Of a stretch of DNA of 38,671 nucleotides, positions 7,345-29,029 are shown one piece after another. Every line of letters begins with the position of its first letter. Positions within the stretch are counted from its first letter, which is position 1. The stretch spans positions 1 through 38,671 of the forward strand of contig QMNJ01000001.1 in NCBI GenBank assembly GCA_003647715.1. Reading direction: 5' to 3'. A program made the position numbers and the translations under genes. The notes beneath the pieces are model-generated. The model saw nothing but the letters and a program-made list of their open reading frames with translations, was not told the origin of the DNA and ran no database searches. Source of the DNA: Candidatus Coatesbacteria bacterium. GTDB taxonomy: Bacteria > RBG-13-66-14 > B26-G2.

Positions 7345-8685
7345 CTATATCCTCTTATTCCTTCTTACTACTCCAGATAATCTTTTTCTCTTCCACAACG
7401 ACGGTATATTAAGCATATCTCTGTATTTCGCTACTGTTCTGCGGGCAATATCATAACCATCCGCCTTGAGTTTTGCAAGTATCTCTTCATCCGATAGGGG
7501 ATTTCTGGGGTCTTCATCAGCGATTATCTCTTTTATCGCCTCCAGTATCTCCCTCTGTGATTTATCCCTGACCTTCTTGGTGAAGAATATCTTCATGGGA
7601 AGTATGCCATGCGGTGTCTTTATATACTTTGATGATACTGCTCTGCTTATCGTAGAGATTGATGTGCCCAGTTTGTCTGCTATATCCTCCATCTTCAGGG
7701 GTCTTATTCCCTTGAGACCCTCTTTTAAGAAGCGGGGTTGTGCGTCCAGCACCGCCTGAGATACCTCAAGGACTGTCTCCAGGCGCCGGTTCACCGTCCA
7801 GCGCATATCCTTTGCCTGCCTGAATAACCCTCTGATGAACCTCAAATCATCTTTCGTTACTCCCTCCGAATTCATAATTGTGTTATAGTATTCGCGCTTA
7901 ACTATCAGATTGGGACAAGCCCTGGGGTTAAGTCGCACCTTAAGACCACCATTTGCGGGCACTGCCTCCAGTTCCCACTCTCCAACCCGCTCAATGTCAT
8001 CCATACCCTCAGCCGGATATGGTCTGGCATTTCTTATCAGTATCTTAAACTCTTCAAACTTTTCCTCTGTAAGTTTGTATCTCTTTGAGATATCTGTGTA
8101 TTCAATTCCAGGATTCTTGATGTATGTTTTAACCAGTTGTTTCAAATTCTTTATCCTGAAACCCGCCTCACGCAACTGTATTTCAATTGCCTCCTCAACG
8201 CTCTCGGCACCTACTCCTGTCGGCTCCATCCTCTGTATCACCCTTTTGAGCACATCTCTAAGTTTGCTCTCCTCAATACCATACCACTTTGAGAGTTCAG
8301 TCACGGAGGCGGTAAAGAGACCCCGCTCATCTATCTCGCCTATAAGTATTTCGCCAATCTTTTTCTCCTCTTCACTTTCAACTAAAAGGTTTAACTGATT
8401 GAGAAGGTGACTCTGGAGGGAGGGCTTTCTATTAGCGATTTTTGCCTCCATCACCACTCGCCTATTGGGCTCGTAATCGGAGGTCGGCGCTGTTTCATCG
8501 GGATAATCCTCCTCTGTTGATTCATCAGAAACATCCACGAAAGGGTTCTGCTCAGCTGACTGCCTGAGGTAGGTTCTCAACTCCTGAGCCGGCATTCTGA
8601 GTATCTTGATGTATTCAAGAACCCTCGGCGCCATCTTCAATTTCTGCTTTATCTTCTGCTCGCTTTTCTGTGCTCTATCAACCAT
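7345..8685 (-). CDS. rpoN: RNA polymerase sigma-54 factor
   Basis: 446 aa with RpoN box ARRTVAKYR, HTH LGTSISTISRAV and region I-like QKLKMAPRVLEYIKILRMPAQEL. Confidence 0.93.
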   Translation of the reverse strand: MVDRAQKSEQKIKQKLKMAPRVLEYIKILRMPAQELRTYLRQSAEQNPFVDVSDESTEEDYPDETAPTSDYEPNRRVVMEAKIANRKPSLQSHLLNQLNLLVESEEEKKIGEILIGEIDERGLFTASVTELSKWYGIEESKLRDVLKRVIQRMEPTGVGAESVEEAIEIQLREAGFRIKNLKQLVKTYIKNPGIEYTDISKRYKLTEEKFEEFKILIRNARPYPAEGMDDIERVGEWELEAVPANGGLKVRLNPRACPNLIVKREYYNTIMNSEGVTKDDLRFIRGLFRQAKDMRWTVNRRLETVLEVSQAVLDAQPRFLKEGLKGIRPLKMEDIADKLGTSISTISRAVSSKYIKTPHGILPMKIFFTKKVRDKSQREILEAIKEIIADEDPRNPLSDEEILAKLKADGYDIARRTVAKYRDMLNIPSLWKRKRLSGVVRRNKRI

Positions 8686-16839: not shown

Positions 16840-17970
16840 TTACCTTACAAGGTTTAATTTCTCTTTTACAAATTGCATTATCTCTTCGGGGTCTATATCC
16901 TCCCAACATATCATCCTAACGCAGTTCTCAAGGTATCCATCTCTATAACAGGGAGCACATTTTACACGGGGGCTGATAATAATTGAATTATCGTTTTTAT
17001 ATGGTCCATATCTAACTGGATTAGTCGGTCCAAAGATTACAATGGTGGGTGTCTTGAACGCAGACGAAATATGGAGGGGGAGGGAGTCATTAGTTATCAA
17101 TAGGCGAGAGCACTTTATTACTGCCGATACCTCTGGGATGGTAGTTTTACCAGTAATGTCCGTGATATTTGAAGATAGAGAGGCAAGTATTCTAGCCCTT
17201 TTTCTATCACTTTTGCTACCAATGATTAAAATTGGAATACTTAATGAACAAAGTTTCTGAACGAGTGCATTCCATTTGTTAATTGGCATTAATTTATTAG
17301 GCATCTTTGTCTTTGGGTTGTCGCCACCACCAGGTGCTATGACTATGTATTTCTCTGAGATGCCCGCATCCTTTAATTGCTTTTCTACTTTATTGGTCAC
17401 TTTCTCTGTGAGGAATATCTCAAGCCCTTTATCCTCAGGTTTACCACCGAGTGAGAGAACCACATTGAGGTATTCATCTGCCTGATGTATTGTCTCATCA
17501 TATTCAGTTGAGTAGTTCAGAAGTGCTCCCTCACCCCTGCGGTTTATTCCTGCCAGGATACCAGAGCAGATAATTCTAAATATCAGCGCGAAGGCAAATG
17601 AGTGATGAAATAGAATACAGAGGTCGTAGTCCTGTTTTCTTATGTCAAGCATTAGTTGCATTATTTTAATTGGGTTGAGAGAGATAAATATAGATTCATC
17701 CACTGTCAATATTCTGTTAATGTTAGGATTGGTAGCAATGATTGGTGATGACCTAATCCCTGTCAGGTAGTTAATCTCTGCATTGGGGAATAATCTTCTC
17801 AGGGTTCTCAGGGCGGGTGTGGTAAGAAGGACCTCACCAGTAGCCCATATTTTGACCACGAGTATCTTTTTAACCTTCTGAGGTCTTTTAGTTCTATTCT
17901 TAAAAGGACTTATGAGAGGAGATATTGCTCTACCGGCAAGTGAACTCAGATTTTCAATCATGAACGGCAT
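16840..17970 (-). CDS. Glycosyltransferase family 9 (heptosyltransferase-like)
   Basis: KILVVKIWATGEVLLTTPALRTLRRLFPNAEINYLT (GT9 N-terminal motif) and LITNDSLPLHISSAFKTPTIVIFGPTNP (GT9 C-terminal motif). Confidence 0.85.
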   Translation of the reverse strand: MPFMIENLSSLAGRAISPLISPFKNRTKRPQKVKKILVVKIWATGEVLLTTPALRTLRRLFPNAEINYLTGIRSSPIIATNPNINRILTVDESIFISLNPIKIMQLMLDIRKQDYDLCILFHHSFAFALIFRIICSGILAGINRRGEGALLNYSTEYDETIHQADEYLNVVLSLGGKPEDKGLEIFLTEKVTNKVEKQLKDAGISEKYIVIAPGGGDNPKTKMPNKLMPINKWNALVQKLCSLSIPILIIGSKSDRKRARILASLSSNITDITGKTTIPEVSAVIKCSRLLITNDSLPLHISSAFKTPTIVIFGPTNPVRYGPYKNDNSIIISPRVKCAPCYRDGYLENCVRMICWEDIDPEEIMQFVKEKLNLVR

Positions 17971-19363
17971 ATATCTCTACCTCCCCTATCTCTTTGAATA
18001 AATAGTAATCATCTTTGATTAAGACCTTTATCTTGTCAGGACTATCAATACCCAGGATGACCCATTGTGGTTTCTGATTCAGTATTATCTGGCACTGTTC
18101 TTCGTGTGAGGGCAGGTGATATTTAGTTCTCTCCTCCTCAGTCAGCAGGTCTGATATTCTTCTGGAGAACTCGCCCAGAAGTAGGTCAGGGTGAGGTATG
18201 CCACTGGTGACATATCCGCTCCACCAGGTTGCGACCACATCATCTTCGTCAACATATTCATCTGTGAAGTCCTGGACTTTCACTATTTCGCTGATTCCAA
18301 CCATAGGTTTAGCATAGTAATTCATAGCAACCCTCCCCAAAGGTCTAACAAGCCCTGTTATGATGAAAAAGAGCATTACAGTTGTTATCAAAATAGATTT
18401 CTTTCGTGATGCTGTTAAATGGTGGATTAAATGGTTGGATGAGATGGCGGTAAATGGAACCAATAATACCAGATACTGGAGTGAAGCAGATATGGGTATA
18501 ATACTGATAATAAGGATGACCAGGACATATAGAGATGATATGCGCTCTATCATTTCAGTTCTTCTGCGGAATAATCTAAATATAGCGATTACTGCGAGTA
18601 TGACTATTATCGCTGAGTTGGGGTCTAATGCCATTTCTTTCACTATGCTAAATCTCGTCATCTGCGACTTATAACCACTGAGTGCGGTGGTGTGAATGCC
18701 GATTACATTGAACAGTAGATAATCGGTGTATTTGAGTGTATAAAATATGATAGGTATTATGCCCGCTATTAATCCGGAGAGAAATGGATAGATATTCCAA
18801 CGATTATTAGTTCTATTGAAGCAGTATATAGGGATGATTATTATGGGTATTAGGATGATTCGTGAAGATATAACAAGACCTGTGAAGAATCCGGACAGAA
18901 GCGCAAATATCAATCGTTTGTTATTGATAGAAAGTATCAAAAACATTATTGAGATAATCAGTAGTAGTATGGTCAGTGAATAGACCTTGACAGGTGATAA
19001 CCAGTTGATTGTTAGATATGAGAAACTGAATATATAGAGTGGTAAACTGCTTGCTTCATTGGTTGTTCTGATTAGCAGGTATAAGATGGTAAGTGAGGTT
19101 ATTGCAAGGGCAACACTGAGGAATCTTCCGGCAATCAGAGATGTCCCGGTAACCTTGAAGAGCAGGGCATATAATAGTGTAGTTAGGGGTGTGTGTGGCA
19201 ATGGAATGTCTCTGTATAATTCATACCCTCTGTTCAAGAGATGTGCTGAGCCAATCCAGAATCCCTCGTCCCTATCCACCGGTCTGTTATATATCTGAGT
19301 TATTAATATAATAGAGAATATGATTAAGATGACTGCAAATGTTCTATTAAGGTTTTTTAACAT
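17954..19363 (-). CDS. Polytopic GT-C glycosyltransferase, PMT_2/ArnT (GT39/GT83)-like
   Basis: 469 aa with about 10 or more hydrophobic helices. The first loop DRDEGFWIGSAHLLNRGYELYRDIPLPHTPL resembles the acidic DE loop of ArnT/PMT enzymes. There is a soluble C-terminal domain. Its end overlaps the GT9 start by 17 nt. Confidence 0.65.
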   Translation of the reverse strand: MLKNLNRTFAVILIIFSIILITQIYNRPVDRDEGFWIGSAHLLNRGYELYRDIPLPHTPLTTLLYALLFKVTGTSLIAGRFLSVALAITSLTILYLLIRTTNEASSLPLYIFSFSYLTINWLSPVKVYSLTILLLIISIMFLILSINNKRLIFALLSGFFTGLVISSRIILIPIIIIPIYCFNRTNNRWNIYPFLSGLIAGIIPIIFYTLKYTDYLLFNVIGIHTTALSGYKSQMTRFSIVKEMALDPNSAIIVILAVIAIFRLFRRRTEMIERISSLYVLVILIISIIPISASLQYLVLLVPFTAISSNHLIHHLTASRKKSILITTVMLFFIITGLVRPLGRVAMNYYAKPMVGISEIVKVQDFTDEYVDEDDVVATWWSGYVTSGIPHPDLLLGEFSRRISDLLTEEERTKYHLPSHEEQCQIILNQKPQWVILGIDSPDKIKVLIKDDYYLFKEIGEVEIYAVHD

Positions 19364-19378
19364 AACCGATTTTTTCTG

Positions 19379-20593
19379 TTATTTCTTACTTCTTTGCCTT
19401 TTATGGTAATTATAGACATTGGTCAGGATTTTCTCTAATGCTTCAGCGTGTTTACCCCATGACTGCTCTTCTTGAATGTATCGGGTAGCATTATCAGATA
19501 GTTTCTGTCTTAATGATGAGTTGTCTCTTATCATCTTGATTGCCTGTGCATATTCATCCGGTTTATCGGGATTGACCAGAATTCCTCTCTCACCATAGCC
19601 GACTATCTTCTCCAGGGTGTCATATTTACTCACTACCACGGGGAGTCCACTTGCCAGGTATTCCATCAATTTTGCCGGTGCCCAGAAGAACCCAAATTCC
19701 TCCAGTGGTTTGTAATAGGAGGCATTGAACGGTGCAAGCCCCACATCGCTTATTGCCATAAGGTAGGGAATTGTTTTGTAGGGCTGGGGACCAAGATAGA
19801 GACAGTATCTCCCGAGACCATTAGAGTGGATGTATTCCATCAATCTTGCCTCTTCGCCCCCTCCACCCACGAGCAAGAAAAGTGCATCTGGAATAATCCT
19901 AGAGGTGTGATAGATAATATCAGGAAGGTCATATATTCCCTGCCATTCTCTGAATGAGCCGACGAATAAGATGAGAAACCTGTTATTTAGATTGTATTTT
20001 TCTATTATTTCTCTGGCGGTGTTAGTATTTCTTAGGTTCTTGTTAAATCTTGAGTGGTCTGCACCCCAGAAAAGTAGGTAGGTTCTGTCTCGTGCGAAGT
20101 CAGGAACTACAGTAGATATTGTGGTAATATTTGCACTTGACTGTCTAAACTGAAAGTTGACCCAGGATTTGAGGGGTGCTTTAATGATGGGCGATTTTAT
20201 CTTCCAGCGGTGTATAATCTCATCAACATGTGGACTGTTCACTTCCAGAACCAGAGGTGTTCTCTTCAGAAATGAGTATATTGCACCAAGACCCCCTGCA
20301 GTTATATATCTCTCCATAACTATATCAAAGTTCTTGTTAAGAAGTGATGGGAGATAGGGGATGGATATCAGTGGGAGTTTTATGCTAATGACCTTCTGCC
20401 AGACCCTGATGACCTTGACGCCATCAACATTTTCAAGGGCACGCTGGTCGTTGCGCCTTAAAGAGAACAGCGTTACCTGGTGTCCAAGTCGGACCAGATT
20501 CCTGGCGACCTCAAAGGTATGAACCGCACCAGCGTGGCTTGCGGGAACATCCTCACATGAGAAGTATAGTATTTTCAATGAGTGGTTATTCAT
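19379..20593 (-). CDS. Glycosyltransferase family 4 (GT-B, group 1)
   Basis: N-terminus HAGAVHTFEVARNLVRLGHQVTLFS and C-terminal E..FG.....KLMEYLASGLPVVVS (EX7E-type region). ATGA start/stop overlap with the upstream gene at 20590-20593. Confidence 0.85.
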   Translation of the reverse strand: MNNHSLKILYFSCEDVPASHAGAVHTFEVARNLVRLGHQVTLFSLRRNDQRALENVDGVKVIRVWQKVISIKLPLISIPYLPSLLNKNFDIVMERYITAGGLGAIYSFLKRTPLVLEVNSPHVDEIIHRWKIKSPIIKAPLKSWVNFQFRQSSANITTISTVVPDFARDRTYLLFWGADHSRFNKNLRNTNTAREIIEKYNLNNRFLILFVGSFREWQGIYDLPDIIYHTSRIIPDALFLLVGGGGEEARLMEYIHSNGLGRYCLYLGPQPYKTIPYLMAISDVGLAPFNASYYKPLEEFGFFWAPAKLMEYLASGLPVVVSKYDTLEKIVGYGERGILVNPDKPDEYAQAIKMIRDNSSLRQKLSDNATRYIQEEQSWGKHAEALEKILTNVYNYHKRQRSKK

Positions 20594-22230
20594 TCCGTTA
20601 TATATATCAATACCTCTGGACCCCTGGTTATTTTACCATCAGGTGAGAAATTTTTTATGAGTTTGTATTTCTCTTTGAGTATTCGGTGGTATTCATTCTC
20701 ACAGGGATATGTCTCCACGCCATAGTCAAGGCATTGGTCAATATAGAATTCTTTATCCCCAAAGACAGAGGTAATAACATATTTGATGTTATTACCTTCA
20801 ATAAATGATACAACATCTTTTATCGCCATGGATACCAGATAAAGGTTGTATTTCCTTCTGTTTTTTATCTCTTTTGACACGCTTATTAATATTCTAAACC
20901 TGATATTGCCCCGCCCCCAGATTGATAGTCGCTCTGCTGATTCAGGGTTCGGAATGAGTTGTGGTGATTCCACATCCGGTATCACCCGGTCAATGAGGAT
21001 GGCAGAATTTTCAGTAAGGTTCTCTTCTATCCACTGTCGTGCCATCTCTCTGGTGTCTGTCATCGCTGATTTTCTAACAGCAATGAAAGTGGGTATTGCA
21101 ATAAATAACCCAATAAAAGATATGAATAAAATTCCAATGTATTTATTCTTCCTCTTTATTTTGGAGAATAAATATTGAAGACCATTTCCTCCGATAATAG
21201 CTATGGGTGGGAGGGAAACAATAAGGTAGTGAGGTGGCACATACCTTCCAACTATGATTGCTATATTAAGTAATACTAATAGTATCAGAGGAATGAGTTT
21301 TCTTTCTCTGGATGCCATCATAAAGCCGAGAAGGGCAAATGGTATTATCACCGGGGTAATCAATCTTGGTGAGATGTTCACTGCAAACCAGCGGAGTGAG
21401 CTCATCAACTGGAATCCCACCTCTCTTGCTCTATCTATCTGTGTTTTTATATCCCCAATAGCGCTGTGATGGTCAATCACAATGAATGGTGAGAATATAA
21501 GGAACGATAGTGTAGTAATTACAACAAACATCAATGATAACCTGATATGAGATTTTACATCTGTTTTCTGTATGAAAATATATGCTATTACTGCGGGTAT
21601 TATCAGGAGGGCGTTGTATTTTGTTGATATAGCAGTGCCTGTGAAGATTGCTGATAGGATGATATTTTGTTTTGACAGATTATGGTTTCGGTAGATAAAG
21701 AATAATGCCATTGAGGTGAAGAGCAGAAGATATGCCTCTGGCTTTGCAAGGTGTGAGTAGCGTATAAACAGCGGTGATGTTATGAGTATTACCGAGGCGA
21801 ATATAGCAGTAGTGCGATTTGCTATCCTTGAAGCCATCAGGTATATAAAGGGTATAGAAAGAGTAGAGAGTATTATGCTGAAAAGACGGGATGTAATATA
21901 TATAACGGTTGGATTCTCAAGGTAGAGGAGCATATAATCGTGTGTAGTTATCACAACATTCAAAACTTTTAGAACCACGAATAGAATTCCAAGAACTATG
22001 AAGAGCATATATACAGGTAGTTGTGCTGGCCAGGTGAAAAGGTGTGGATTGAAATCGCCGGTTCCACAGTGGAGGGCTCGCTCCACAATCTGGAATTCAT
22101 CGCTCACCGTTAAACTAGGAAGATTACCTTTCAAACCAGGTAATGTGAGCGCAAGAGATGAGATGATAAGAATCAGTATAATATATCTGTCTCTCAAGGT
22201 TCTCTCCTCATTCTGAGAACTGCATTGCAT
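20590..22230 (-). CDS. Polytopic GT-C glycosyltransferase, PMT_2/ArnT-like (second copy)
   Basis: 546 aa with many TM helices, an early acidic loop (TVSDEFQIVERALH) and a soluble C-terminal domain. An alternative TTG start at 22197 would form a TTGA overlap with the YfhO stop. Confidence 0.6.
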   Translation of the reverse strand: MQCSSQNEERTLRDRYIILILIISSLALTLPGLKGNLPSLTVSDEFQIVERALHCGTGDFNPHLFTWPAQLPVYMLFIVLGILFVVLKVLNVVITTHDYMLLYLENPTVIYITSRLFSIILSTLSIPFIYLMASRIANRTTAIFASVILITSPLFIRYSHLAKPEAYLLLFTSMALFFIYRNHNLSKQNIILSAIFTGTAISTKYNALLIIPAVIAYIFIQKTDVKSHIRLSLMFVVITTLSFLIFSPFIVIDHHSAIGDIKTQIDRAREVGFQLMSSLRWFAVNISPRLITPVIIPFALLGFMMASRERKLIPLILLVLLNIAIIVGRYVPPHYLIVSLPPIAIIGGNGLQYLFSKIKRKNKYIGILFISFIGLFIAIPTFIAVRKSAMTDTREMARQWIEENLTENSAILIDRVIPDVESPQLIPNPESAERLSIWGRGNIRFRILISVSKEIKNRRKYNLYLVSMAIKDVVSFIEGNNIKYVITSVFGDKEFYIDQCLDYGVETYPCENEYHRILKEKYKLIKNFSPDGKITRGPEVLIYITE

Positions 22231-24626
22231 ATTATTAGGATTATTATAATAGTGCCAGTCAGAGAAATGTATAGACCTGTGGCGAATGTCGCTGGAAGAA
22301 ATTCAAGGACTATTAGGTGTTCACCCGGTTGGATGGGGATAGCCATAAGTCCGCCAAATGCCTCCTCTACTCCAACCTCAACTCCATCTATAAAACACCG
22401 CCAGCCCGGATATGAGAGTATGGATGTGGCTATATAACCACCTTCTCCAATGTAGGTCATCTCAATTTGGTTGTCTTTTATAGCATCTATAATGACTTCT
22501 CCACCATCTGTATATTCAGCAAGTGACCTACTTCCTGTGATAATCAGGTCATATTCAGGTATGAAGTTGTTGTCGGTAATATATTCTTCCATCTCGTCTA
22601 TGTCTTTGACATATATAAATCTTGATGGAGTGTAGATTAGAGGTGGGGAGTTAATAAGTTCATATAAATAGATTGTAAATGATTCTCTATCTATTTTACT
22701 TATCAGTTTCACTTCTTCACTAATAATTTGATGGGTAGTGAGTAGATACTTAATGGATAGCATCTCCAGGGGTTTGAGGGAGACGGGTTTGGTGGTTGGA
22801 GTGTATCGTGATAATGGGTAGGTGCCCCTGCCTCTCTCATGGAGGTTGGTCCAGACCAATCTTCTCATCAATGCTGTATATTGGTGTTCAAAGGACAGTC
22901 GGGGTATAGGGGTGCGAAGACCAAATAGTATATTTGTGTTTGGAACCAACAGTTCTGTTGAGAATCTTTCATCTGCTAAGTCCCAGCCCGACGAGAAGAT
23001 AGAATAGTTTTCAGCACTTTTAAGAGATGTGATACATTCAGGTGATTTGAATTGAGTATATGGTATAACCCTCTCTCTAAAAACTGAACTCTGAGCAATA
23101 TCTATGAGAGTAATGATTGATACCAGCAATAGAGGCATAATGGTTCTCTTTTTTCTGCTCCTGATGGCTATTGTGGATACACCGATAAACATAGCCACCA
23201 TTACTATCGTCCTCAATCGCCCACTGTTGGTAATGTTAAGGCATTCACCAGCCCTTTCAAGCATAATGGTTATCTTCTCCCGATAAGCATCAGTTGACAG
23301 TTGGTCAGCCGAGCCGTCTCTTTCTCCATACCTCATCGTTAAGTAGTTTGTTATGCGGTTGCCTTCCTCGGTTATAAGGAGATTTAGGATGATAATTGTG
23401 ATGATAAAGGCAATCTGTGTGATGACAAGCAGATTGATAAATGATTTCTTTATCTTTTCTCTATTCAGGGCATCTACACCCATGGCGGATAGGACTGATA
23501 GGGAGACCAAAGTGAGGAACATGTATCTTGCCGGCATTCTAAAAAAAGATAAGGGAGGTATTTTAAGAATGAGTTTTGCAAGTGGGTTGAACTTCCCCAG
23601 AGCCAAGAAGATGCCTATAAGGGTCATCAACACGAAGAACCATTTTATTCTGTTAAGTCGCTTATGATGGATGGCAAATACTGCAAGCATAGCGAAGAGA
23701 AATGGGATAAGCCCAATGGAGTAAGTGGATTCAAAGTATGAGCCAGAACCCCAGTATGTTTCTTTCACATTTCTCAGTGCGATATTGCCTGTGGTATTAT
23801 ATGCGGGTGGGTGAGGAGAAGAGCCAAATAGTGAATTGTCAAAGAAGGTTATCAAGTGTATGGGATTATATGATTGTTCAAGCCGATTGAAACCCGATTT
23901 TAACCTATCGGAGTGTAGAGCGAGTTCAAGTGAGGGCAGGAGTTGTATGGATGATACCACAAATATACCTGATATCAGTATGAAAGTAATTATCAATCTT
24001 CTTAGAAATTTTCGGTTTGAGGTGAACAATATGTAAAGTAGCGAGAGTGCAATACCCATTGAAGCGAACTGGAAGTGACCGCAGAGAAGCGATAGACCCC
24101 CAACCAGTATAAATAAACCATACCAGATTATCTCATTGCCTCTCTTTGCCTTTTCCGCGAGAAACAACAGAAGTGGTGTATATGAAGCACCTTCAATGAA
24201 AGGCATTATTCCAAGATGGAGGGAGAACTGGCTGGATGAGGCGAAGGCGAGACCGCCTATAACGGATGAAATTCTTGATAGACCTATGAGACGGATGAAG
24301 GCATACAGAGATAATCCAGCGAGTAGAAGGTGGACAAGTATGGTGATATTGTGGGCAAGCCAGGGAGGTAATAGGTATGAAAGAATAATATGCAAGGGAT
24401 GGGCAAAACCACCCTGACTCTCAGCAAAGGCGGGGTAGTTCAGAAGATGAGACCAGAGAGGAAACTCACCATTCTTGAGACCATTCTTCAATATTGTGAA
24501 ATATGGGTAGGAGAATGTTATGGCATCCTTGGCATTCAGGGGACCTAAGAGGAGTGGGAGATTCAGTATAGTTATGAAAAGAGCGATGAAAAGGTATGTT
24601 GTTAACTCTTTAGTTCTTTCGCTCAA
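22194..24626 (-). CDS. YfhO-family polytopic membrane protein (GT-C glycosyltransferase)
   Basis: 810 aa. The N-terminal FPLWSHLLNYPAFAESQGGFAHPLH loop is typical of YfhO. It has more than 10 TM helices plus a large extracytoplasmic C-terminal domain and a final TM. The TTG start forms a TTGA overlap with the ATPase stop (24623-24626). Confidence 0.72.
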   Translation of the reverse strand: MSERTKELTTYLFIALFITILNLPLLLGPLNAKDAITFSYPYFTILKNGLKNGEFPLWSHLLNYPAFAESQGGFAHPLHIILSYLLPPWLAHNITILVHLLLAGLSLYAFIRLIGLSRISSVIGGLAFASSSQFSLHLGIMPFIEGASYTPLLLFLAEKAKRGNEIIWYGLFILVGGLSLLCGHFQFASMGIALSLLYILFTSNRKFLRRLIITFILISGIFVVSSIQLLPSLELALHSDRLKSGFNRLEQSYNPIHLITFFDNSLFGSSPHPPAYNTTGNIALRNVKETYWGSGSYFESTYSIGLIPFLFAMLAVFAIHHKRLNRIKWFFVLMTLIGIFLALGKFNPLAKLILKIPPLSFFRMPARYMFLTLVSLSVLSAMGVDALNREKIKKSFINLLVITQIAFIITIIILNLLITEEGNRITNYLTMRYGERDGSADQLSTDAYREKITIMLERAGECLNITNSGRLRTIVMVAMFIGVSTIAIRSRKKRTIMPLLLVSIITLIDIAQSSVFRERVIPYTQFKSPECITSLKSAENYSIFSSGWDLADERFSTELLVPNTNILFGLRTPIPRLSFEHQYTALMRRLVWTNLHERGRGTYPLSRYTPTTKPVSLKPLEMLSIKYLLTTHQIISEEVKLISKIDRESFTIYLYELINSPPLIYTPSRFIYVKDIDEMEEYITDNNFIPEYDLIITGSRSLAEYTDGGEVIIDAIKDNQIEMTYIGEGGYIATSILSYPGWRCFIDGVEVGVEEAFGGLMAIPIQPGEHLIVLEFLPATFATGLYISLTGTIIIILIICNAVLRMRREP

Positions 24627-26344
24627 CTCAAACCTCTATGAAGATGGGAGAGTTTGTCTTTTCCTCTCCACTCAAAGTTCTCAAAGAAATCACCAGCACT
24701 TCTGGCAAAACCACCAAAGCGGATGGCAAGTGAGGTTATGTCTGGTCTAATTACCCCACTTTCATTGAGTGCATCGTCATCGGTAAAGACCGTCTCTGGA
24801 GCGCCAACCTTCACAATTCTACCACCCTTCATAAGCGCAATTCTATCTGAATACTTGAGGGCAAGCCATATAGAGTGTGTTATGCAGATTACTGTAATAC
24901 CTCTCTCTCTTAACTCAATGACCGTTTTCATAAGCGAGGTGACCTCATTATAATCAAGTCCGGTGGATGGCTCATCCAGTATAAGTATCGCCGGTTCAAG
25001 AGCCAGGATAGATGCCAGAGCAAGACGCTGTCTCTCACCCTTGTTCAACGAGTATGGGTCTTCACCCTCAAGTCCCGAGAGGTTGAGGTAGTTAAGGTAG
25101 GTCTTAACTTTTCTATCAATCTCTTTCTGTTTTAGTTTCTGTATTTTCAAGCCAAAGGCGACCTCTTCAAAAAGTGTCTCGGAGAATATCTGGTGGTCGG
25201 GGTCCTGAAATAGATATCCTATTATCCTGCACATCTTCTCCGGCTCAATATCAGACGGATTTACGCCAAGGACTTCAATTTTACCCTTCTGTGGTTTTAG
25301 AAAACCGGTGATGAGACCTGCCAGGGTGGTCTTTCCACTACCGTTGGGACCGAGTAAGGTGAATATCTCGCCTTTTCTGATGGTTAGTGATACATCTTTT
25401 ACAACATCTGTTTTACCATCATACGAGAAGAATACACTACTAATGTTAATAACAGGACGAAGGTTGGGTTCTTTTCTACTCTTTTTATTCTTATACTTTA
25501 TATCGCTTGCTTTTAGATAGTCATAAAGGTCTTCCAGGTTATGTATATTATTTTCTGGTGATAACAATGTGAGGTCAGGTGGTTTTACACCCGATTCTAT
25601 CAGTTTGAGTGGATAGTTAAGTATTGTATTCGCCCTCCCCTGATTTATTATCTTGCCATCTTTCAATACGAAGACCCAGTCATATCTTTCTGGTAGGATG
25701 ACCTCTTCATCGGCGATGATTACTGTCTTATCATTCTTGCTTAGGTTATGAAGCATATTGATAATCTCCACCCTACTGCTACTATCTATATCTGTGAAGG
25801 GTTCGTCCAGCCCGATTATATCTGTTCCTCCAGATAGAACTGAAGCGATAGAAAGCCGTTGTTTCTCCCCTCCTGATAAACTGGATGGGGTTCTATCTGA
25901 TAGGTGCTCAATTCCAAGCATTCTCAATGACTTTTTTGCTCTCTTAATTGTTTCATCCCTGGATATTCCCAGGTTAGAGGGGTAGAAGGCGGATTCATAT
26001 AAAGCATTAGTAGAGAATAACTGGTATTTGAAGTCCTGAAAGACCACACCATATAAAGCCGGTATTTCCTTCTGTTCAAGTTTATGGATGTCTCTGCCAG
26101 AGATGAGAATCTTACCCTTAATATCTCCTGGTATAAACCTGGGTATTAGACCCGCTATGGAAAGGAGCAGAGTTGATTTCCCCGAACCACTTCCACCGAG
26201 TATGAGGTTTATTGTTGAGTAGTTGATTTGCATATTAATGCCAGAGAGTGCAGGCGTTGTAGAACCTTCATATTGGAATGAGAGGTCTTTTATCTGTAAT
26301 GCTGGTATATGTTTTTGTGATGTGTATTGAGCCGGTTCTGTCAT
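24623..26344 (-). CDS. Fused double ATPase of the ECF/CbiO type (EcfA-EcfA')
   Basis: Two ABC cassettes: GGSGSGKST / LSGGEKQR / IGLDEP, and GPNGSGKTT / LNKGERQR / LILDEPS. Both carry the EcfA-type Q-loop regions VFQDFKYQLF and LFQDPDHQIF. Confidence 0.9.
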   Translation of the reverse strand: MTEPAQYTSQKHIPALQIKDLSFQYEGSTTPALSGINMQINYSTINLILGGSGSGKSTLLLSIAGLIPRFIPGDIKGKILISGRDIHKLEQKEIPALYGVVFQDFKYQLFSTNALYESAFYPSNLGISRDETIKRAKKSLRMLGIEHLSDRTPSSLSGGEKQRLSIASVLSGGTDIIGLDEPFTDIDSSSRVEIINMLHNLSKNDKTVIIADEEVILPERYDWVFVLKDGKIINQGRANTILNYPLKLIESGVKPPDLTLLSPENNIHNLEDLYDYLKASDIKYKNKKSRKEPNLRPVINISSVFFSYDGKTDVVKDVSLTIRKGEIFTLLGPNGSGKTTLAGLITGFLKPQKGKIEVLGVNPSDIEPEKMCRIIGYLFQDPDHQIFSETLFEEVAFGLKIQKLKQKEIDRKVKTYLNYLNLSGLEGEDPYSLNKGERQRLALASILALEPAILILDEPSTGLDYNEVTSLMKTVIELRERGITVICITHSIWLALKYSDRIALMKGGRIVKVGAPETVFTDDDALNESGVIRPDITSLAIRFGGFARSAGDFFENFEWRGKDKLSHLHRGLS

Positions 26345-27123
26345 AAGAAAAGTATGGAGAGTAAGACCATTACAATGGCAGGTGATAAACTTAAACCGAT
26401 TATTAAAGAGGAATTAGTATTGGTTGTGGCAACAATCTTCATAGGGGTATAGTCCATTACACCGATAGAGAGAAGGTTGCCCATAATATAACCCCCAATG
26501 GCGCCTATGAGAAGGAGCGTTAAACCGACCCAGAAGGTTTTCTTCCTATTGTAATGCTCTTCTCCTAGAATCTGAGGGTATAGGAGATTCCATCGTCTTA
26601 TTCTCTTGAATATGAGTTTTACTATGATGGGTGCAAGAATGCAGGAGGCGATGGCATTATTGAAAGCAATGATGTTTGATAGTGCTGCAAATGGTGCCAG
26701 ACCAATGATATCTGCTCCCCAGCCGATTATCATCCCGCAGGTTATACTTGCAAGTATGGAAGAGAAGATAAGAAGGATTATCCTTCTGGTTCCAATATCT
26801 GAATCAAAACGCGGTGGTTTTACAATTTTGTAGGGAATATAGGCAAACATGAAGTTACCAATGAACCCAAACAGAGAACCCCAGCCAAGCATACCACCGA
26901 ATATATCGCCCACAAGATTTCCTATTGCTGAGCCCCAGGCGGCTGCTGGTCCAAAAACAAATGATAGTGCAATGGGAATAGAAACAGCGGGTCTTATCTC
27001 GGTCACGCCGGGGATGAGAACAAGTGCCTTGAATGGAATCATAAGACCTGCGTATAGTGCGGCTGTGGTTGCTGTTAGAACTACCATTCTGGTGTCTCGC
27101 CACATGTGTATTAATTCACGCAT
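26341..27123 (-). CDS. ECF transporter S-component-like membrane protein (QueT-like) with an extra C-terminal 2-TM extension
   Basis: TAALYAGLMIPFKALVLIPGVTEIRPAVSIPIALSFVFGPAAAWGSAIGNLVGDIFGG resembles QueT/ECF S components. ATGA overlap with the ATPase gene. I prefer the ATG at 27123, because the track start (TTG at 27201) would run through both intergenic promoters. Confidence 0.5.
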   Translation of the reverse strand: MRELIHMWRDTRMVVLTATTAALYAGLMIPFKALVLIPGVTEIRPAVSIPIALSFVFGPAAAWGSAIGNLVGDIFGGMLGWGSLFGFIGNFMFAYIPYKIVKPPRFDSDIGTRRIILLIFSSILASITCGMIIGWGADIIGLAPFAALSNIIAFNNAIASCILAPIIVKLIFKRIRRWNLLYPQILGEEHYNRKKTFWVGLTLLLIGAIGGYIMGNLLSIGVMDYTPMKIVATTNTNSSLIIGLSLSPAIVMVLLSILFL

Positions 27124-27180
27124 AATATTCGTTCTCGGTAAGGTGTTAATATGATAACAAATTGGCACAGGTTTTTGAAC

Positions 27181-27189
27181 ATTATAGCA
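27181..27189 (-). promoter_or_regulatory. Extended -10 element (TGCTATAAT) for the minus-strand ECF/glycosyltransferase operon
   Basis: The reverse complement of 27181-27189 reads TGCTATAAT, about 58 nt upstream of the ATG at 27123. No convincing -35 element. Confidence 0.3.
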
Positions 27190-27190
27190 G

Positions 27191-27220
27191 TTGACATACA
27201 ATGGATGTAGAAAGTATAAT
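27191..27220 (+). promoter_or_regulatory. Near-consensus sigma-70 promoter of tRNA-Lys
   Basis: TTGACA (27191-27196), an 18-nt spacer, then TATAAT (27215-27220). The tRNA 5' end lies 11 nt downstream of the -10. Confidence 0.7.
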
Positions 27221-27230
27221 AAGTTGTATA

Positions 27231-27303
27231 GAGCCGCTAGCTCAGTAGGTAGAGCAACGGCCTTTTAAGCCGTGGGTCGAAGGTTCGATTCCTTCGCGGC
27301 TCA
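27231..27303 (+). tRNA. tRNA-Lys (anticodon UUU)
   Basis: A perfect 73-nt cloverleaf folded by hand: acceptor GAGCCGC/GCGGCTC, D arm GCTC-AGTAGGTA-GAGC, anticodon arm ACGGC-CTTTTAA-GCCGT, variable loop GGGTC, T arm GAAGG-TTCGATT-CCTTC, discriminator A. CCA is not encoded. A T7 run follows. Confidence 0.96.
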
Positions 27304-27340
27304 TTTTTTTATTTTACATTCATTTGCTTTATTTTATCCT

Positions 27341-29029
27341 ATGTCTATCCCTATGGCAAAGGCAGTCGTAATCTATGTAAGAGGACTTGGACAGAACACT
27401 CTGAAGTGGGCACTCAAAAGAAAATTTCTTCCATATCTGAAGTCAACTATCAATGAAGGAACCATAAAGAGGGTAAAGCCATTTCTCCCTCTTGACCATT
27501 GGGTGAATGAGCTCTCCTTTTTGAGAGGTGATAACCCCGGTGTTTTCTCATACTCTGGTTATACCGGCTGGAACTGGGAAGAGATGAGACCTGAGAACTC
27601 CGGAATAGAAAGAATTGAGAGATTGTTCTTCAGAGATATTTTCTCTAACAGGGTGTATCCCATAGGAGATTTCAAGCATAGAATATTTACCATAGGTTTT
27701 GAGCAGACATTTACACCGAACTCAATGGGGATTAACTCTGTATCTATACCTCCAGTCAGGTTTTTAAATGGCTATGGAGAACCGGTTCTCTTTACCACTC
27801 AGGAGGAAGCGCTTGAAGTAAACGACACCGGCAAGGTTGTTCCCATAAAGGTGGCGGAGAATAGGGTTAAAACCGTTCTGGAAGGTATGATGGGGACAAA
27901 GTCGCATCTCTTATTTGAGGTTAGAGAGAACAATTTAATTATGTTAAGAACTGATAGGGATGAGGTTGAGGTCAGAAAGGGTGAGGTATCAAGACCTATT
28001 GAGATATTATTCAAAAACAGGTTGTTAAGAAGAATTAGAGGTTACTACCAATTTTATATCAGGTCAATAACCCCACACCTTATTGTAAGCGCCAGCCCCC
28101 TCTCTGTCCAACTTGAATCGCAGTTTGTTAAGCATACCAGACCAGGTGGTGTGTTCGCTAAGCTGGAAAGGGATGCAGGACCCATTATTCTTAGAAATCC
28201 ATATGCTATTCTTAATTCATTCATCAGTGGGTGGATAGACAGGAGAGCAATGTTAAGGTTATTAGAGTGGGATATAATGGGCTTGACTCAAATATTGATG
28301 AGGTCTACTTCTTGGAATAGCGAAGATGTGATAGTTGTTATGTTTCCCCATCTGGATATCGCCTATCACTGTATGGGGGGGGATGGTATATTATGGGCTG
28401 TTAGGGAGTTGGACTGGATTATTGGGTGGTTAAACCATATCTATGGAATAAGACCATTTGTGGTGGGAGATTTTTCTATGTCTAGGGTTAGGAAAGTGGT
28501 TGACCTTAACAGATATTTTTTGTCCCGTGGTATTATCAATCTAAAGAATATAGATAGAGTTCCTTATTCTGGCATTCATAATTTCTGGGATGATGTTGAT
28601 TGGGATAACACAATTGCGTTCTCACTTGGTGGTGGTAGGGTTTTCGTAAATAGGAAGAATTCTCAATTTAAAGATGGTGCAATAAAGAGAGAGATGGAGG
28701 ATAAGATTATTAGTGTAGTTAATGGATTGAATAGAATCTATGGAGGAGGGGTGAAGAGGGTAGTGAGAAAGTATGAGATATATTCAGGGGAACTCTTTCA
28801 CGAGATGCCAGATTTACTGGTATGCTTTGGTGGTGGTCTATTTAATGGTTATATGGATTTCACCGATTTGAATAACAGAATATTCAATGAGAAAGATGCA
28901 GTACAGTATGAACACTTATCGCAGGATAATGAGAGAAATGATGGTGTAATGCTCTCACCTGTGAAGACATCTAAGGATGCTATTTCAATAGATAGAGTAA
29001 TGGAAGATATAATGTCATTATTGGAATAA
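27341..29029 (+). CDS. Alkaline-phosphatase-superfamily (type I phosphodiesterase/nucleotide pyrophosphatase-like) protein, probably catalytically inactive
   Basis: Colinear by eye with the roughly 500-aa bacterial/archaeal AlkP-family proteins. VVIYVRGLGQNTLKWALKRKFLPYLKSTINEG matches ViviGlDG....l...g.lPnLk.l...G. VDWDNTIAFSLGGGRVFVNRK, VVRKYEIYSGELFHEMPDLLV and the C-terminal NDGVMLS...ISIDRVMEDIMSLL also fit. Start moved to the ATG at 27341, because the track ORF starts at a GTG inside the tRNA. No obvious SD. Confidence 0.45.
   Translation: MSIPMAKAVVIYVRGLGQNTLKWALKRKFLPYLKSTINEGTIKRVKPFLPLDHWVNELSFLRGDNPGVFSYSGYTGWNWEEMRPENSGIERIERLFFRDIFSNRVYPIGDFKHRIFTIGFEQTFTPNSMGINSVSIPPVRFLNGYGEPVLFTTQEEALEVNDTGKVVPIKVAENRVKTVLEGMMGTKSHLLFEVRENNLIMLRTDRDEVEVRKGEVSRPIEILFKNRLLRRIRGYYQFYIRSITPHLIVSASPLSVQLESQFVKHTRPGGVFAKLERDAGPIILRNPYAILNSFISGWIDRRAMLRLLEWDIMGLTQILMRSTSWNSEDVIVVMFPHLDIAYHCMGGDGILWAVRELDWIIGWLNHIYGIRPFVVGDFSMSRVRKVVDLNRYFLSRGIINLKNIDRVPYSGIHNFWDDVDWDNTIAFSLGGGRVFVNRKNSQFKDGAIKREMEDKIISVVNGLNRIYGGGVKRVVRKYEIYSGELFHEMPDLLVCFGGGLFNGYMDFTDLNNRIFNEKDAVQYEHLSQDNERNDGVMLSPVKTSKDAISIDRVMEDIMSLLE

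Follow-up and report, generated by a model that had tools for sequence, protein, structure and literature searches.

An S component and a fused EcfA-EcfA' ATPase (S and AA' below) are encoded side by side in the window, by which we mean the whole stretch of 38,671 nucleotides that was analysed. They very probably form an ordinary ECF importer whose T component is encoded elsewhere in the genome, and the contact of the pair with a YfhO gene is then a genus-specific operon fusion. The apparent oddity of an ECF pair that lacks T and sits in a glycan operon disappears on this reading: the importer is a normal one, and the gene for its scaffold has its place at another locus. A glycosylation role should not be annotated from this neighbourhood. 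The features concerned are listed in Table 1.

Table 1. Position and supporting evidence of the features of the S-AA' locus
Feature	Position	Strand	Evidence or remark
YfhO-family GT-C gene	22194..24626	minus	PF09586 at 3.4e-16; TTG start overlaps ATPase stop
Fused EcfA-EcfA' ATPase, 573 aa	24623..26344	minus	TIGR04520 and TIGR04521 above cut-offs, two ABC_tran stretches
S component, 260 aa	26341..27123	minus	PF06177 match, AlphaFold2 fold, homologue-supported start
Upstream region, 107 nt	27124..27230	minus	Between S start and divergent tRNA-Lys; promoter-like hexamers

The S component and its family

The minus-strand open reading frame that encloses S extends over 26341-27201 (286 aa) and contains the string PGVTEIRPAVSIPIALSFVFGPAAAWGSAIGNLVGD, which had been quoted in the earlier note as QueT-like. 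Alignment with homologues supports the ATG at 27123 as the start. In Pfam the core indeed scores best against QueT (PF06177; E 8.5e-16, 59 bits, cut-off 33.7), with a match that spans residues 41-197 of the 286-aa frame and leaves about 89 C-terminal residues outside it, while none of the NCBIfam models matched the protein. The AlphaFold2 model (pLDDT 89, pTM 0.89) has six core helices and two long additional ones, at 197-220 and 238-259. When this model was compared with the PDB using Foldseek, the best 11 matches were to ThiT, RibU, FolT and PanT, with probabilities of 0.97-1.0 and target-normalised TM-scores of 0.52-0.65. On the Pfam and Foldseek evidence the six-helix S-component fold is present. 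S is a QueT-family protein by Pfam, with a six-helix ECF core and a conserved two-helix C-terminal extension.

The extension is no peculiarity of this locus. It is present in more than 1000 homologues, which have 250-290 aa, and the extended, 8-helix S proteins make up a family of more than 1000 clusters in many phyla, of which the extension is the defining build. All 23 residues that are invariant over 78 homologues are retained in the S of the window.

In other phyla, 80 genome loci (L008-L087) were tabulated, and at 59 of them S, AA' and T occur together. The order is S>AA'>T in 43 of all the tabulated S-bearing loci (L002-L087) and AA'>T>S in 19. Nearer to the source genome, a relative from the same order (G001) has S-AA'-T contiguous, and class-level relatives have a lone S and a separate AA'-T module. 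Where S stands alone in the phylum or in Zixibacteria, the genes around it (PG_binding_1, bifunctional nuclease, MFS, methyltransferase, NHL and UxuA) follow no coherent theme. What is outlined here is a large family, found in many phyla, in which an 8-helix QueT-like S is combined with T and an asymmetric, fused ATPase.

The fused ATPase

Two EcfA-type nucleotide-binding domains are present in AA', as indicated by both ECF ATPase models (358 bits against TIGR04520, cut-off 315, and 355 bits against TIGR04521, cut-off 330) and by the two ABC_tran stretches. Its reading frame carries the strings VFQDFKYQLF and LFQDPDHQIF quoted in the earlier note, whose description of two EcfA/CbiO-type cassettes, a QueT-like S and about 90 extra C-terminal residues with two helices agrees with the quoted strings, Pfam and AlphaFold2. 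In a motif census of 62 family ATPases, NBD2 of AA' has consensus Walker A, Walker B and H-loop motifs and a degenerate signature (LNKGE), a degeneracy that is family-wide, and in NBD1 the switch His is replaced by Glu. The NBD1 His is also lost in G001, whose S-AA'-T operon is intact. Given the degenerate signature of NBD2 and the altered switch residue of NBD1, one of the two ATP sites of AA' is probably catalytic and the other degenerate. The next-best ABC ATPases of the genome have E >= 8e-35 and resemble LptB, MlaF and LivG.

The T component

No CbiQ/EcfT match was found within the window. The assembly has a single CbiQ/EcfT gene, on another contig (C66:4831-5625), where it lies between a gene for a secreted 330-aa protein on one side and an OsmC-like gene on the other. 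A profile was built only from T subunits of this S/AA' family, with the T on C66 left out. It scores the C66 protein at 227 bits, compared with 162-341 bits for other family T subunits and less than 26 bits for unrelated CbiQ paralogues. Judged by the profile, the C66 protein falls into the clade of T components whose partners are the S and AA' proteins of this family. This score, together with the conservation of the gene at 58 % identity in a sister genome, places a cognate T in the genome, which bears out the suggestion made earlier that T might be encoded elsewhere. S, ECF-type fused ATPase and T are found once each; since the assembly is 92 % complete, these counts of one are lower bounds.

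Of 26 near-invariant positions the C66 protein retains 19, and it has kept the AQxxRG coupling motif. Its first coupling-helix motif, [AS]FRL[VL]P in the family, has become SLMLLP or ALILLP in this genus, so that the Arg is lost; among 54 family T subunits this is seen in the two genomes of the genus only. Because this Arg is lost and NBD1 has Glu in place of its switch His, the coupling of S, AA' and T may be altered.

The sister genome (GCA_052745195.1) has S-AA'-YfhO-PMT_2-GT4 at one locus (L003), with gene order and 4-nt overlaps identical to those of the window, a recurrence that speaks against a chance arrangement, and an orphan T with the same neighbours at another (L156). Identity between the two species is 76 % for S, a higher value than for any other gene of the cluster, 55 % for AA' and 58 % for T, comparable to the 53-73 % of the neighbouring genes. 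S, AA' and T are intact in both, with no stops, and on the strength of this conservation a pseudogene reading was rejected. The same separation is seen in TA06 SM23_40, where S-AA' and a family-type T (354 bits) are on different contigs and T stands alone; there it arose independently. The split between S-AA' and T is stable in this genus, and recurrent.

Gene neighbourhood

The locus consists of seven co-directional genes. S and AA' overlap by ATGA and AA' and YfhO by TTGA, and there is a further 4-nt overlap between PMT_2 and GT4. Junction sequence and domain search confirm that no EcfT follows AA' and that YfhO comes next, as had been described; after YfhO (PF09586) come PMT_2, GT4 and a second PMT_2-like gene. 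Tight overlaps from S to GT4, kept in two species, are typical of a functional operon, and S-AA' may be linked functionally to the YfhO genes. The genome is compact, at 1.6 Mb.

Upstream of S there are promoter-like sites at 27179-27151 and 27149-27122 on the minus strand, and a divergent tRNA-Lys(TTT) at 27231-27303. The promoter and terminator scan gave counts near background and nothing decisive within the cluster. The tRNA-Lys was the only Rfam match both in the whole window at gathering scores and at E <= 10 over 26900-27400, with no riboswitch in either search. The 18 family loci searched at gathering scores (130 kb) were likewise free of riboswitches, whether preQ1 or vitamin. The earlier note had held that a canonical ecfT adjacent in relatives, together with a preQ1 or vitamin riboswitch, would indicate an ordinary vitamin importer; the adjacent ecfT is found and the riboswitch is not.

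The idea that orthologous S-AA' pairs lie regularly beside YfhO or other GT-C genes found no support. Among 86 S-bearing loci of other genomes S/AA' adjoins YfhO in one, the close relative at L003, and co-occurrence is not conserved across lineages (0/80 genome loci from other phyla and 0/11 phylum loci). YfhO in fact heads a YfhO-PMT_2 module, which occurs without S/AA' in all three relatives checked (G001, G002 and G009); GT4 is joined to it here and in G009. YfhO is a neighbour only, and not part of the transporter. As the adjacency to glycosyltransferases is confined to this genus, the locus probably does not represent a novel device for glycosylation.

Proposed mode of action

We propose that S and AA' are the membrane and ATPase parts of a dedicated importer, from a large and poorly characterised family of 8-helix QueT-like S, EcfAA' and EcfT proteins. 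In this genus T would have been separated from the operon, leaving the sole EcfT of the genome on C66, and a normal ECF complex is predicted to form from the three subunits in trans. The substrate would be captured by S, which would then topple against T, powered by the single consensus ATP site of AA'. The importer genes and the YfhO genes would be two modules, independent in every other relative examined, that were fused into one operon here.

Substrate

The most promising lead points to a 5'-deoxynucleoside, for instance 5'-methylthioadenosine (MTA) or 5'-deoxyadenosine, a putative substrate that we put forward as plausible but tentative. At 14 of the 80 family loci (in Clostridia, Spirochaetota and Chloroflexota) AA'-T-S lies inside a cluster for MTA/5'-deoxyadenosine salvage, with genes for GntR, an MtnA-like isomerase, MTA phosphorylase, a class II aldolase, an MTA/5'-dAdo-type deaminase and methionine gamma-lyase. 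The enzyme set of this cluster, from GntR to the gamma-lyase, is that of the 5-deoxyribose/DHAP-shunt pathway (PMC6079011). The genome of the window has scattered homologues of these enzymes; genes for MTA phosphorylase or MTR-1-P isomerase were found beside S neither in the window nor elsewhere in its phylum. Family context therefore suggests a 5'-deoxynucleoside, and since the S proteins of the MTA clusters form a separate clade that does not include the S of the window, the suggestion is one by family homology only. If it is correct, the family would be the missing uptake system of DHAP-shunt/5-deoxyribose pathways. A literature search on MtaT, QueT and fused ECF ATPases gave only a TCDB family list (PMC3654945) and a structure paper on YkoE.

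Alternative explanations

The locus could also be read, as in one option of the earlier note, as a repurposed pair that serves glycosylation. In this genus S and AA' would then act with or without T, for example by import of a precursor or by flipping of a lipid-linked sugar for YfhO and PMT_2. Such a role would fit the co-directional genes and their 4-nt overlaps, which a second species shares at 53-76 % identity, and also the physical removal of T and the loss of its first coupling Arg in these two genomes only. We nevertheless think it highly unlikely, in view of the near absence of YfhO adjacency outside the genus, the self-standing YfhO-PMT_2(-GT4) modules of the relatives, the retention by S of every family-invariant residue, and the intact family-type T in both genomes. 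In every structure known so far, a protein with the S-component fold takes a small soluble ligand, which also counts against it. It is very improbable, too, that the pair has been recruited to an envelope-glycosylation operon so that the separately expressed T, with its altered coupling helix (Arg to Met or Ile), limits and switches the importer. Were this true, T-limited switching would be an undescribed control of an ECF transporter through its scaffold subunit, and substrate import or transporter assembly would be co-regulated with glycan synthesis. The NBD1 His to Glu change, the degenerate NBD2 signature and the lost coupling Arg might instead be taken as signs of decay, in a transporter that became inactive after T was separated and whose genes are now drifting. 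This is extremely unlikely: the three genes are intact in two species at 55-76 % identity with S the best conserved, the degenerate signature is found throughout the family, and G001, with its intact operon, has lost the His too.

A genuine QueT, that is, an importer of the queuosine precursors preQ1, preQ0 or queuine, is what the Pfam name implies, and the PF06177 match above its gathering score, the NCBI homologue name 'QueT transporter family protein' and the presence of tgt in the genome are all in line with it. We consider this unlikely. The genome has QueC (156 bits) as well as tgt, so that de novo synthesis of preQ0 is likely and a dependence on salvaged queuosine precursors is not indicated. 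A typical QueT has about 160-170 aa, whereas the protein here has 260 aa and 8 helices. The riboswitch searches, at E <= 10 upstream of S and at gathering scores in the 18 family loci, gave no preQ1 riboswitch, and the informative family neighbourhoods are those of MTA/5'-deoxyadenosine salvage, with no queuosine genes. The family is labelled 'QueT' in databases, yet no preQ1 riboswitch was found for it, and its salvage context is in Bacillota, Spirochaetota and Chloroflexota. The reading that we prefer remains that of an ordinary S-AA'-T importer, and it is this that is compared with known systems below.

Comparison with known systems

YkoEDC is a Group I, or dedicated, ECF transporter of the thiamine-precursor type with a fused, duplicated ATPase, and the structure of its S component has been described (PMC5037267). 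The present system resembles it in the six-helix S fold, in having both NBDs in one polypeptide, in its CbiQ/EcfT-type T and, for most members of the family, in having the three genes in one operon. It differs in that S belongs to a QueT-like sequence family and has two extra C-terminal helices, and in that T is on another contig.

QueT and QrtT, the S components for queuosine precursors, are regulated by preQ1 riboswitches in Firmicutes. They share with the S of the window the best Pfam match of its core. They differ from it in that it is about 90 residues longer, has no preQ1 riboswitch and comes from a genome with QueC; its family, moreover, has a dedicated fused ATPase and T rather than a shared module.

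Rodionov et al. are said to have made the original prediction, in 2009, of MtaT as a methylthioadenosine ECF family. This predicted family is TCDB 3.A.1.33, whose membrane proteins have 6-7 predicted TMS (PMC3654945), a number compatible with the extended S. The likeness otherwise lies in gene context, through the 14 S-family members inside clusters with MTA phosphorylase, MTR-1-P isomerase and aldolase. In contrast, the locus of the window has no MTA genes, and its S is outside the MTA-cluster clade.

Group II ECF transporters have a shared EcfAA'T and scattered S components. As in these, the subunits here would come from different loci and assemble in trans, and the class-level relatives of the source genome, with their lone S and AA'-T module, show the same arrangement. 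Unlike in Group II, the split here falls between AA' and T, and the genome as assembled has a single S.

The locus

Every gene from 16840 to 27201 lies on the minus strand. Alignment with 21 homologues places the start of the S component at the ATG at 27123 (MRELIHMW...), giving a protein of 260 amino acids, and 107 nt separate this start from the divergent tRNA-Lys(TTT) gene upstream. The protein matches Pfam QueT (PF06177) over roughly its first 170 residues (59 bits, E = 8.5e-16), and no NCBIfam model matches it. The fused ATPase AA' passes the curated cut-off of each of the two ECF-ATPase equivalogs (TIGR04520, 358 bits, cut-off 315; TIGR04521, 355 bits, cut-off 330). S and AA' overlap by ATGA, and AA' and YfhO by TTGA; 3' of YfhO come PMT_2, GT4 and a gene resembling PMT_2. 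What the earlier note states about the sequence is correct throughout. Judged from the gene overlaps, AA' and YfhO are likely to be co-transcribed; a promoter and terminator scan of the locus was uninformative.

On the other side of the S gene, a 585-aa plus-strand ORF is listed with a GTG that falls within the tRNA-Lys gene, and its real start must therefore be downstream. As listed, it matches no Pfam or NCBIfam family.

Features of the locus and of the related loci discussed in the text
Feature	Location	Strand	Remarks
Putative GT9-like ORF	16840-17970	-	co-directional, after the PMT_2-like gene
YfhO gene	22194-24626	-	PF09586, directly after AA'
AA'	24623-26344	-	573 aa, two ABC cassettes
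S ORF	26341-27201	-	polytopic membrane protein
tRNA-Lys gene	27231-27303		divergent from S
585-aa ORF as listed	27272-29029	+	GTG start
CbiQ/EcfT match, own genome	C66:4969-5592		
Orphan T ORF	L001 1363-2154 (G000:C66)	-	263 aa
Sister-genome T	L156 8001-8795		
G001 S-AA'-T	L102 9056-12349		contiguous
AA'/T ORF	L067 8783-11287		834 aa
Two S paralogues	L107 9130-9924, 11655-12428		1.7 kb apart
AA'-T-S operon	L006/L007 9177-12801		Petroclostridium-like contig
Large co-directional salvage clusters	L036, L040, L041, L047, L049, L052-L055, L061, L080		around position 8000

The S component

The AlphaFold2 model of S, made from an alignment of 78 sequences, has high confidence (pLDDT 89, pTM 0.89), with six core helices followed by two long C-terminal helices, 197-220 and 238-259. 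A Foldseek search of the PDB with this model gave ECF S components (ThiT, RibU, FolT, PanT) as all of its first 11 matches, with probabilities of 0.97-1.0 and about 180 aligned columns that span the whole target. All 23 positions that are invariant among the 78 sequences are kept in the window's S. We conclude that this membrane protein is a genuine S component.

A database search returned 1090 clusters of homologues at E ≤ 1e-3, nearly all of them 245-295 aa long and aligned over 85-100% of the query, including the C-terminal extension. Because the homologues share this length and extension, the roughly 90 extra residues remarked on in the earlier note belong to the standard build of a large family and are nothing peculiar to this locus.

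The T subunit

The assembly (1.62 Mb, 196 contigs, 92% complete) contains exactly one CbiQ/EcfT match, on contig C66, together with a single S and a single ECF-type ATPase. The next ABC ATPases of the genome match at E ≥ 8e-35, and by their motifs read like LptB, MlaF and LivG. On its upstream side the orphan T gene shares 1 nt with a gene for a secreted protein of 330 aa, and on its downstream side 4 nt with an OsmC-like gene. Against a profile built from 65 T sequences of S/AA'/T loci, from which it was itself left out, it scores 227 bits (E = 2e-67); on the same profile the T proteins of the phylum that adjoin a fused AA' score 162-341 bits, and CbiQ-type paralogues adjoining single-domain ATPases score below 26 bits. 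The suggestion that T is encoded elsewhere is thus borne out.

The sister genome GCA_052745195.1 retains this arrangement, with the order 331-aa protein, T, OsmC, HIT. Identities between the two genomes are 76% for S, 55% for AA', 58% for T, 53% for YfhO, 54% for PMT_2 and 73% for GT4, and the three ECF genes drift no faster than the genes beside them. A second, independent split is found in TA06 bacterium SM23_40, where S-AA' (L034) and a family-type T scoring 354 bits are on different contigs, T alone on C79 (L164).

A single S, a single AA' and a single cognate T are each kept intact in two species, and for this reason the simplest reading is that they would assemble in trans into an importer. 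The assembly step is what we infer; the system is probably a dedicated ECF importer whose T is supplied in trans.

Motor and coupling motifs

Across 62 family ATPases the signature motif is LSGG[EQ] in NBD1 and L[STGN]KGE in NBD2, with consensus Walker A, Walker B and H-loop in NBD2. As far as motifs can tell, the family ATPase is asymmetric: one ATP site fits the consensus and the other looks degenerate. In 55 of the 62, NBD1 keeps its switch histidine; the window and its sister locus L003 have Glu there, the same-order relative G001 has Val, a WOR-3 genome Asn and NC10 genomes Pro. Since G001 lacks the histidine and has contiguous S-AA'-T, the histidine was lost before T was separated.

Both the orphan T and its sister protein have an intact second coupling motif, AQxxRG. 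The arginine of the first, [AS]FRL[VL]P, is invariant in 52 other family T proteins, and is Met in the orphan T (SLMLLP) and Ile in the sister T (ALILLP). These two, 58% identical orthologues, are the only ones of 54 to lack it, and their loss of it is the sole feature to follow the split layout of this genus.

Gene arrangements

We took 80 loci (L008-L087) from species genomes of many phyla, and scored their ORFs with the S, AA', YfhO, PMT_2, GT4 and GT9-like proteins of the window and with two T sequences. S, AA' and T occur together in 59 of the 80. Counted over all tabulated S-bearing loci (L002-L087, six of them fetched earlier), the order is S>AA'>T in 43 and AA'>T>S in 19; S accompanies AA' without T in 10, several of which end at a contig edge, and stands alone in 12. 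The S family thus normally has T adjoining the same fused ATPase.

A single 834-aa ORF from an uncultured deltaproteobacterium matches both the fused AA' (3e-109) and T (7e-41), and is possibly an AA'-T triple fusion or else a frameshift artefact. The same-class relative G007 has two S paralogues close together.

Within the phylum, S is present in 13 of 25 species genomes, and three layouts of S, AA' and T all occur. In the S tree, the window and L003 cluster with 100% support and are sister to G001, within a phylum clade of 98% support. Among the tabulated loci, YfhO or PMT_2 lies beside S only in L003, the sister-genome locus whose S is 76% identical, which repeats the order S-AA'-YfhO-PMT_2-GT4 with identical overlaps. 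G001 carries its YfhO-PMT_2 pair on a separate contig from S-AA'-T, while class-level relatives have S alone, a fused-AA'-T module elsewhere in the genome, and a free-standing YfhO-PMT_2 module, joined by GT4 in G009. Because relatives keep them apart, the ECF and glycosyltransferase genes are independent modules, adjacent only in this genus. The alternative that the pair has been repurposed to serve glycosylation has only that adjacency in its favor. Against it, S is unchanged, T has been retained, and in all relatives examined the two modules are independent of each other.

Substrate

Import of a queuosine precursor is unlikely. No riboswitch was found upstream of S, whether at Rfam gathering thresholds or at E ≤ 10, nor in 130 kb of sequence from 18 family loci. 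The genome encodes both tgt and QueC, so it is not obviously dependent on salvage of queuosine precursors.

Clustering of neighbours over the 80 loci gave a single coherent theme. In 14 loci (Clostridia, Spirochaetota and Chloroflexota), where the order is always AA'>T>S, the genes of the transporter are interspersed with a constant set of others: a GntR regulator, an MtnA-like S-methyl-5-thioribose-1-phosphate isomerase, an MTA phosphorylase (TIGR01694, 273.5 bits), a class II aldolase, an MTA/5'-deoxyadenosine deaminase-type amidohydrolase and a methionine gamma-lyase. The large co-directional clusters in the table have the order GntR, MtnA-like, AA', T, MTA phosphorylase, S, class II aldolase, methionine gamma-lyase, deaminase. 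Phosphorylase, isomerase and class II aldolase make up a disposal route for 5-deoxyribose and 5'-deoxyadenosine (PMC6079011), and these clusters are candidate uptake-plus-salvage regulons for MTA/5'-deoxyadenosine. The S proteins of the 14 loci fall within a 96%-supported clade of 20, with the window's S outside it. Homologues of the phosphorylase, isomerase, aldolase and deaminase do occur, dispersed, in the genome of the window, and the neighbours of lone S genes in the phylum are uninformative. A 5'-deoxynucleoside is our tentative suggestion for the substrate.

One AA'-T-S operon lies about 2.4 kb upstream of CobD, CbiC and CbiD; this proximity to cobalamin genes is probably coincidental, because it is not seen elsewhere.

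Significance

The interest of these results is modest. It lies in the size of the "QueT-like, 8-helix" S family, which is probably mislabelled, in one phylum displaying all three splits of the S, AA' and T genes, in the first coupling arginine of T having been lost in this genus only, and in the association, in three phyla, of the family with MTA/5'-deoxyadenosine salvage. Among its ECF systems TCDB names a "Methylthioadenosine (MTA) family, MtaT" (PMC3654945).
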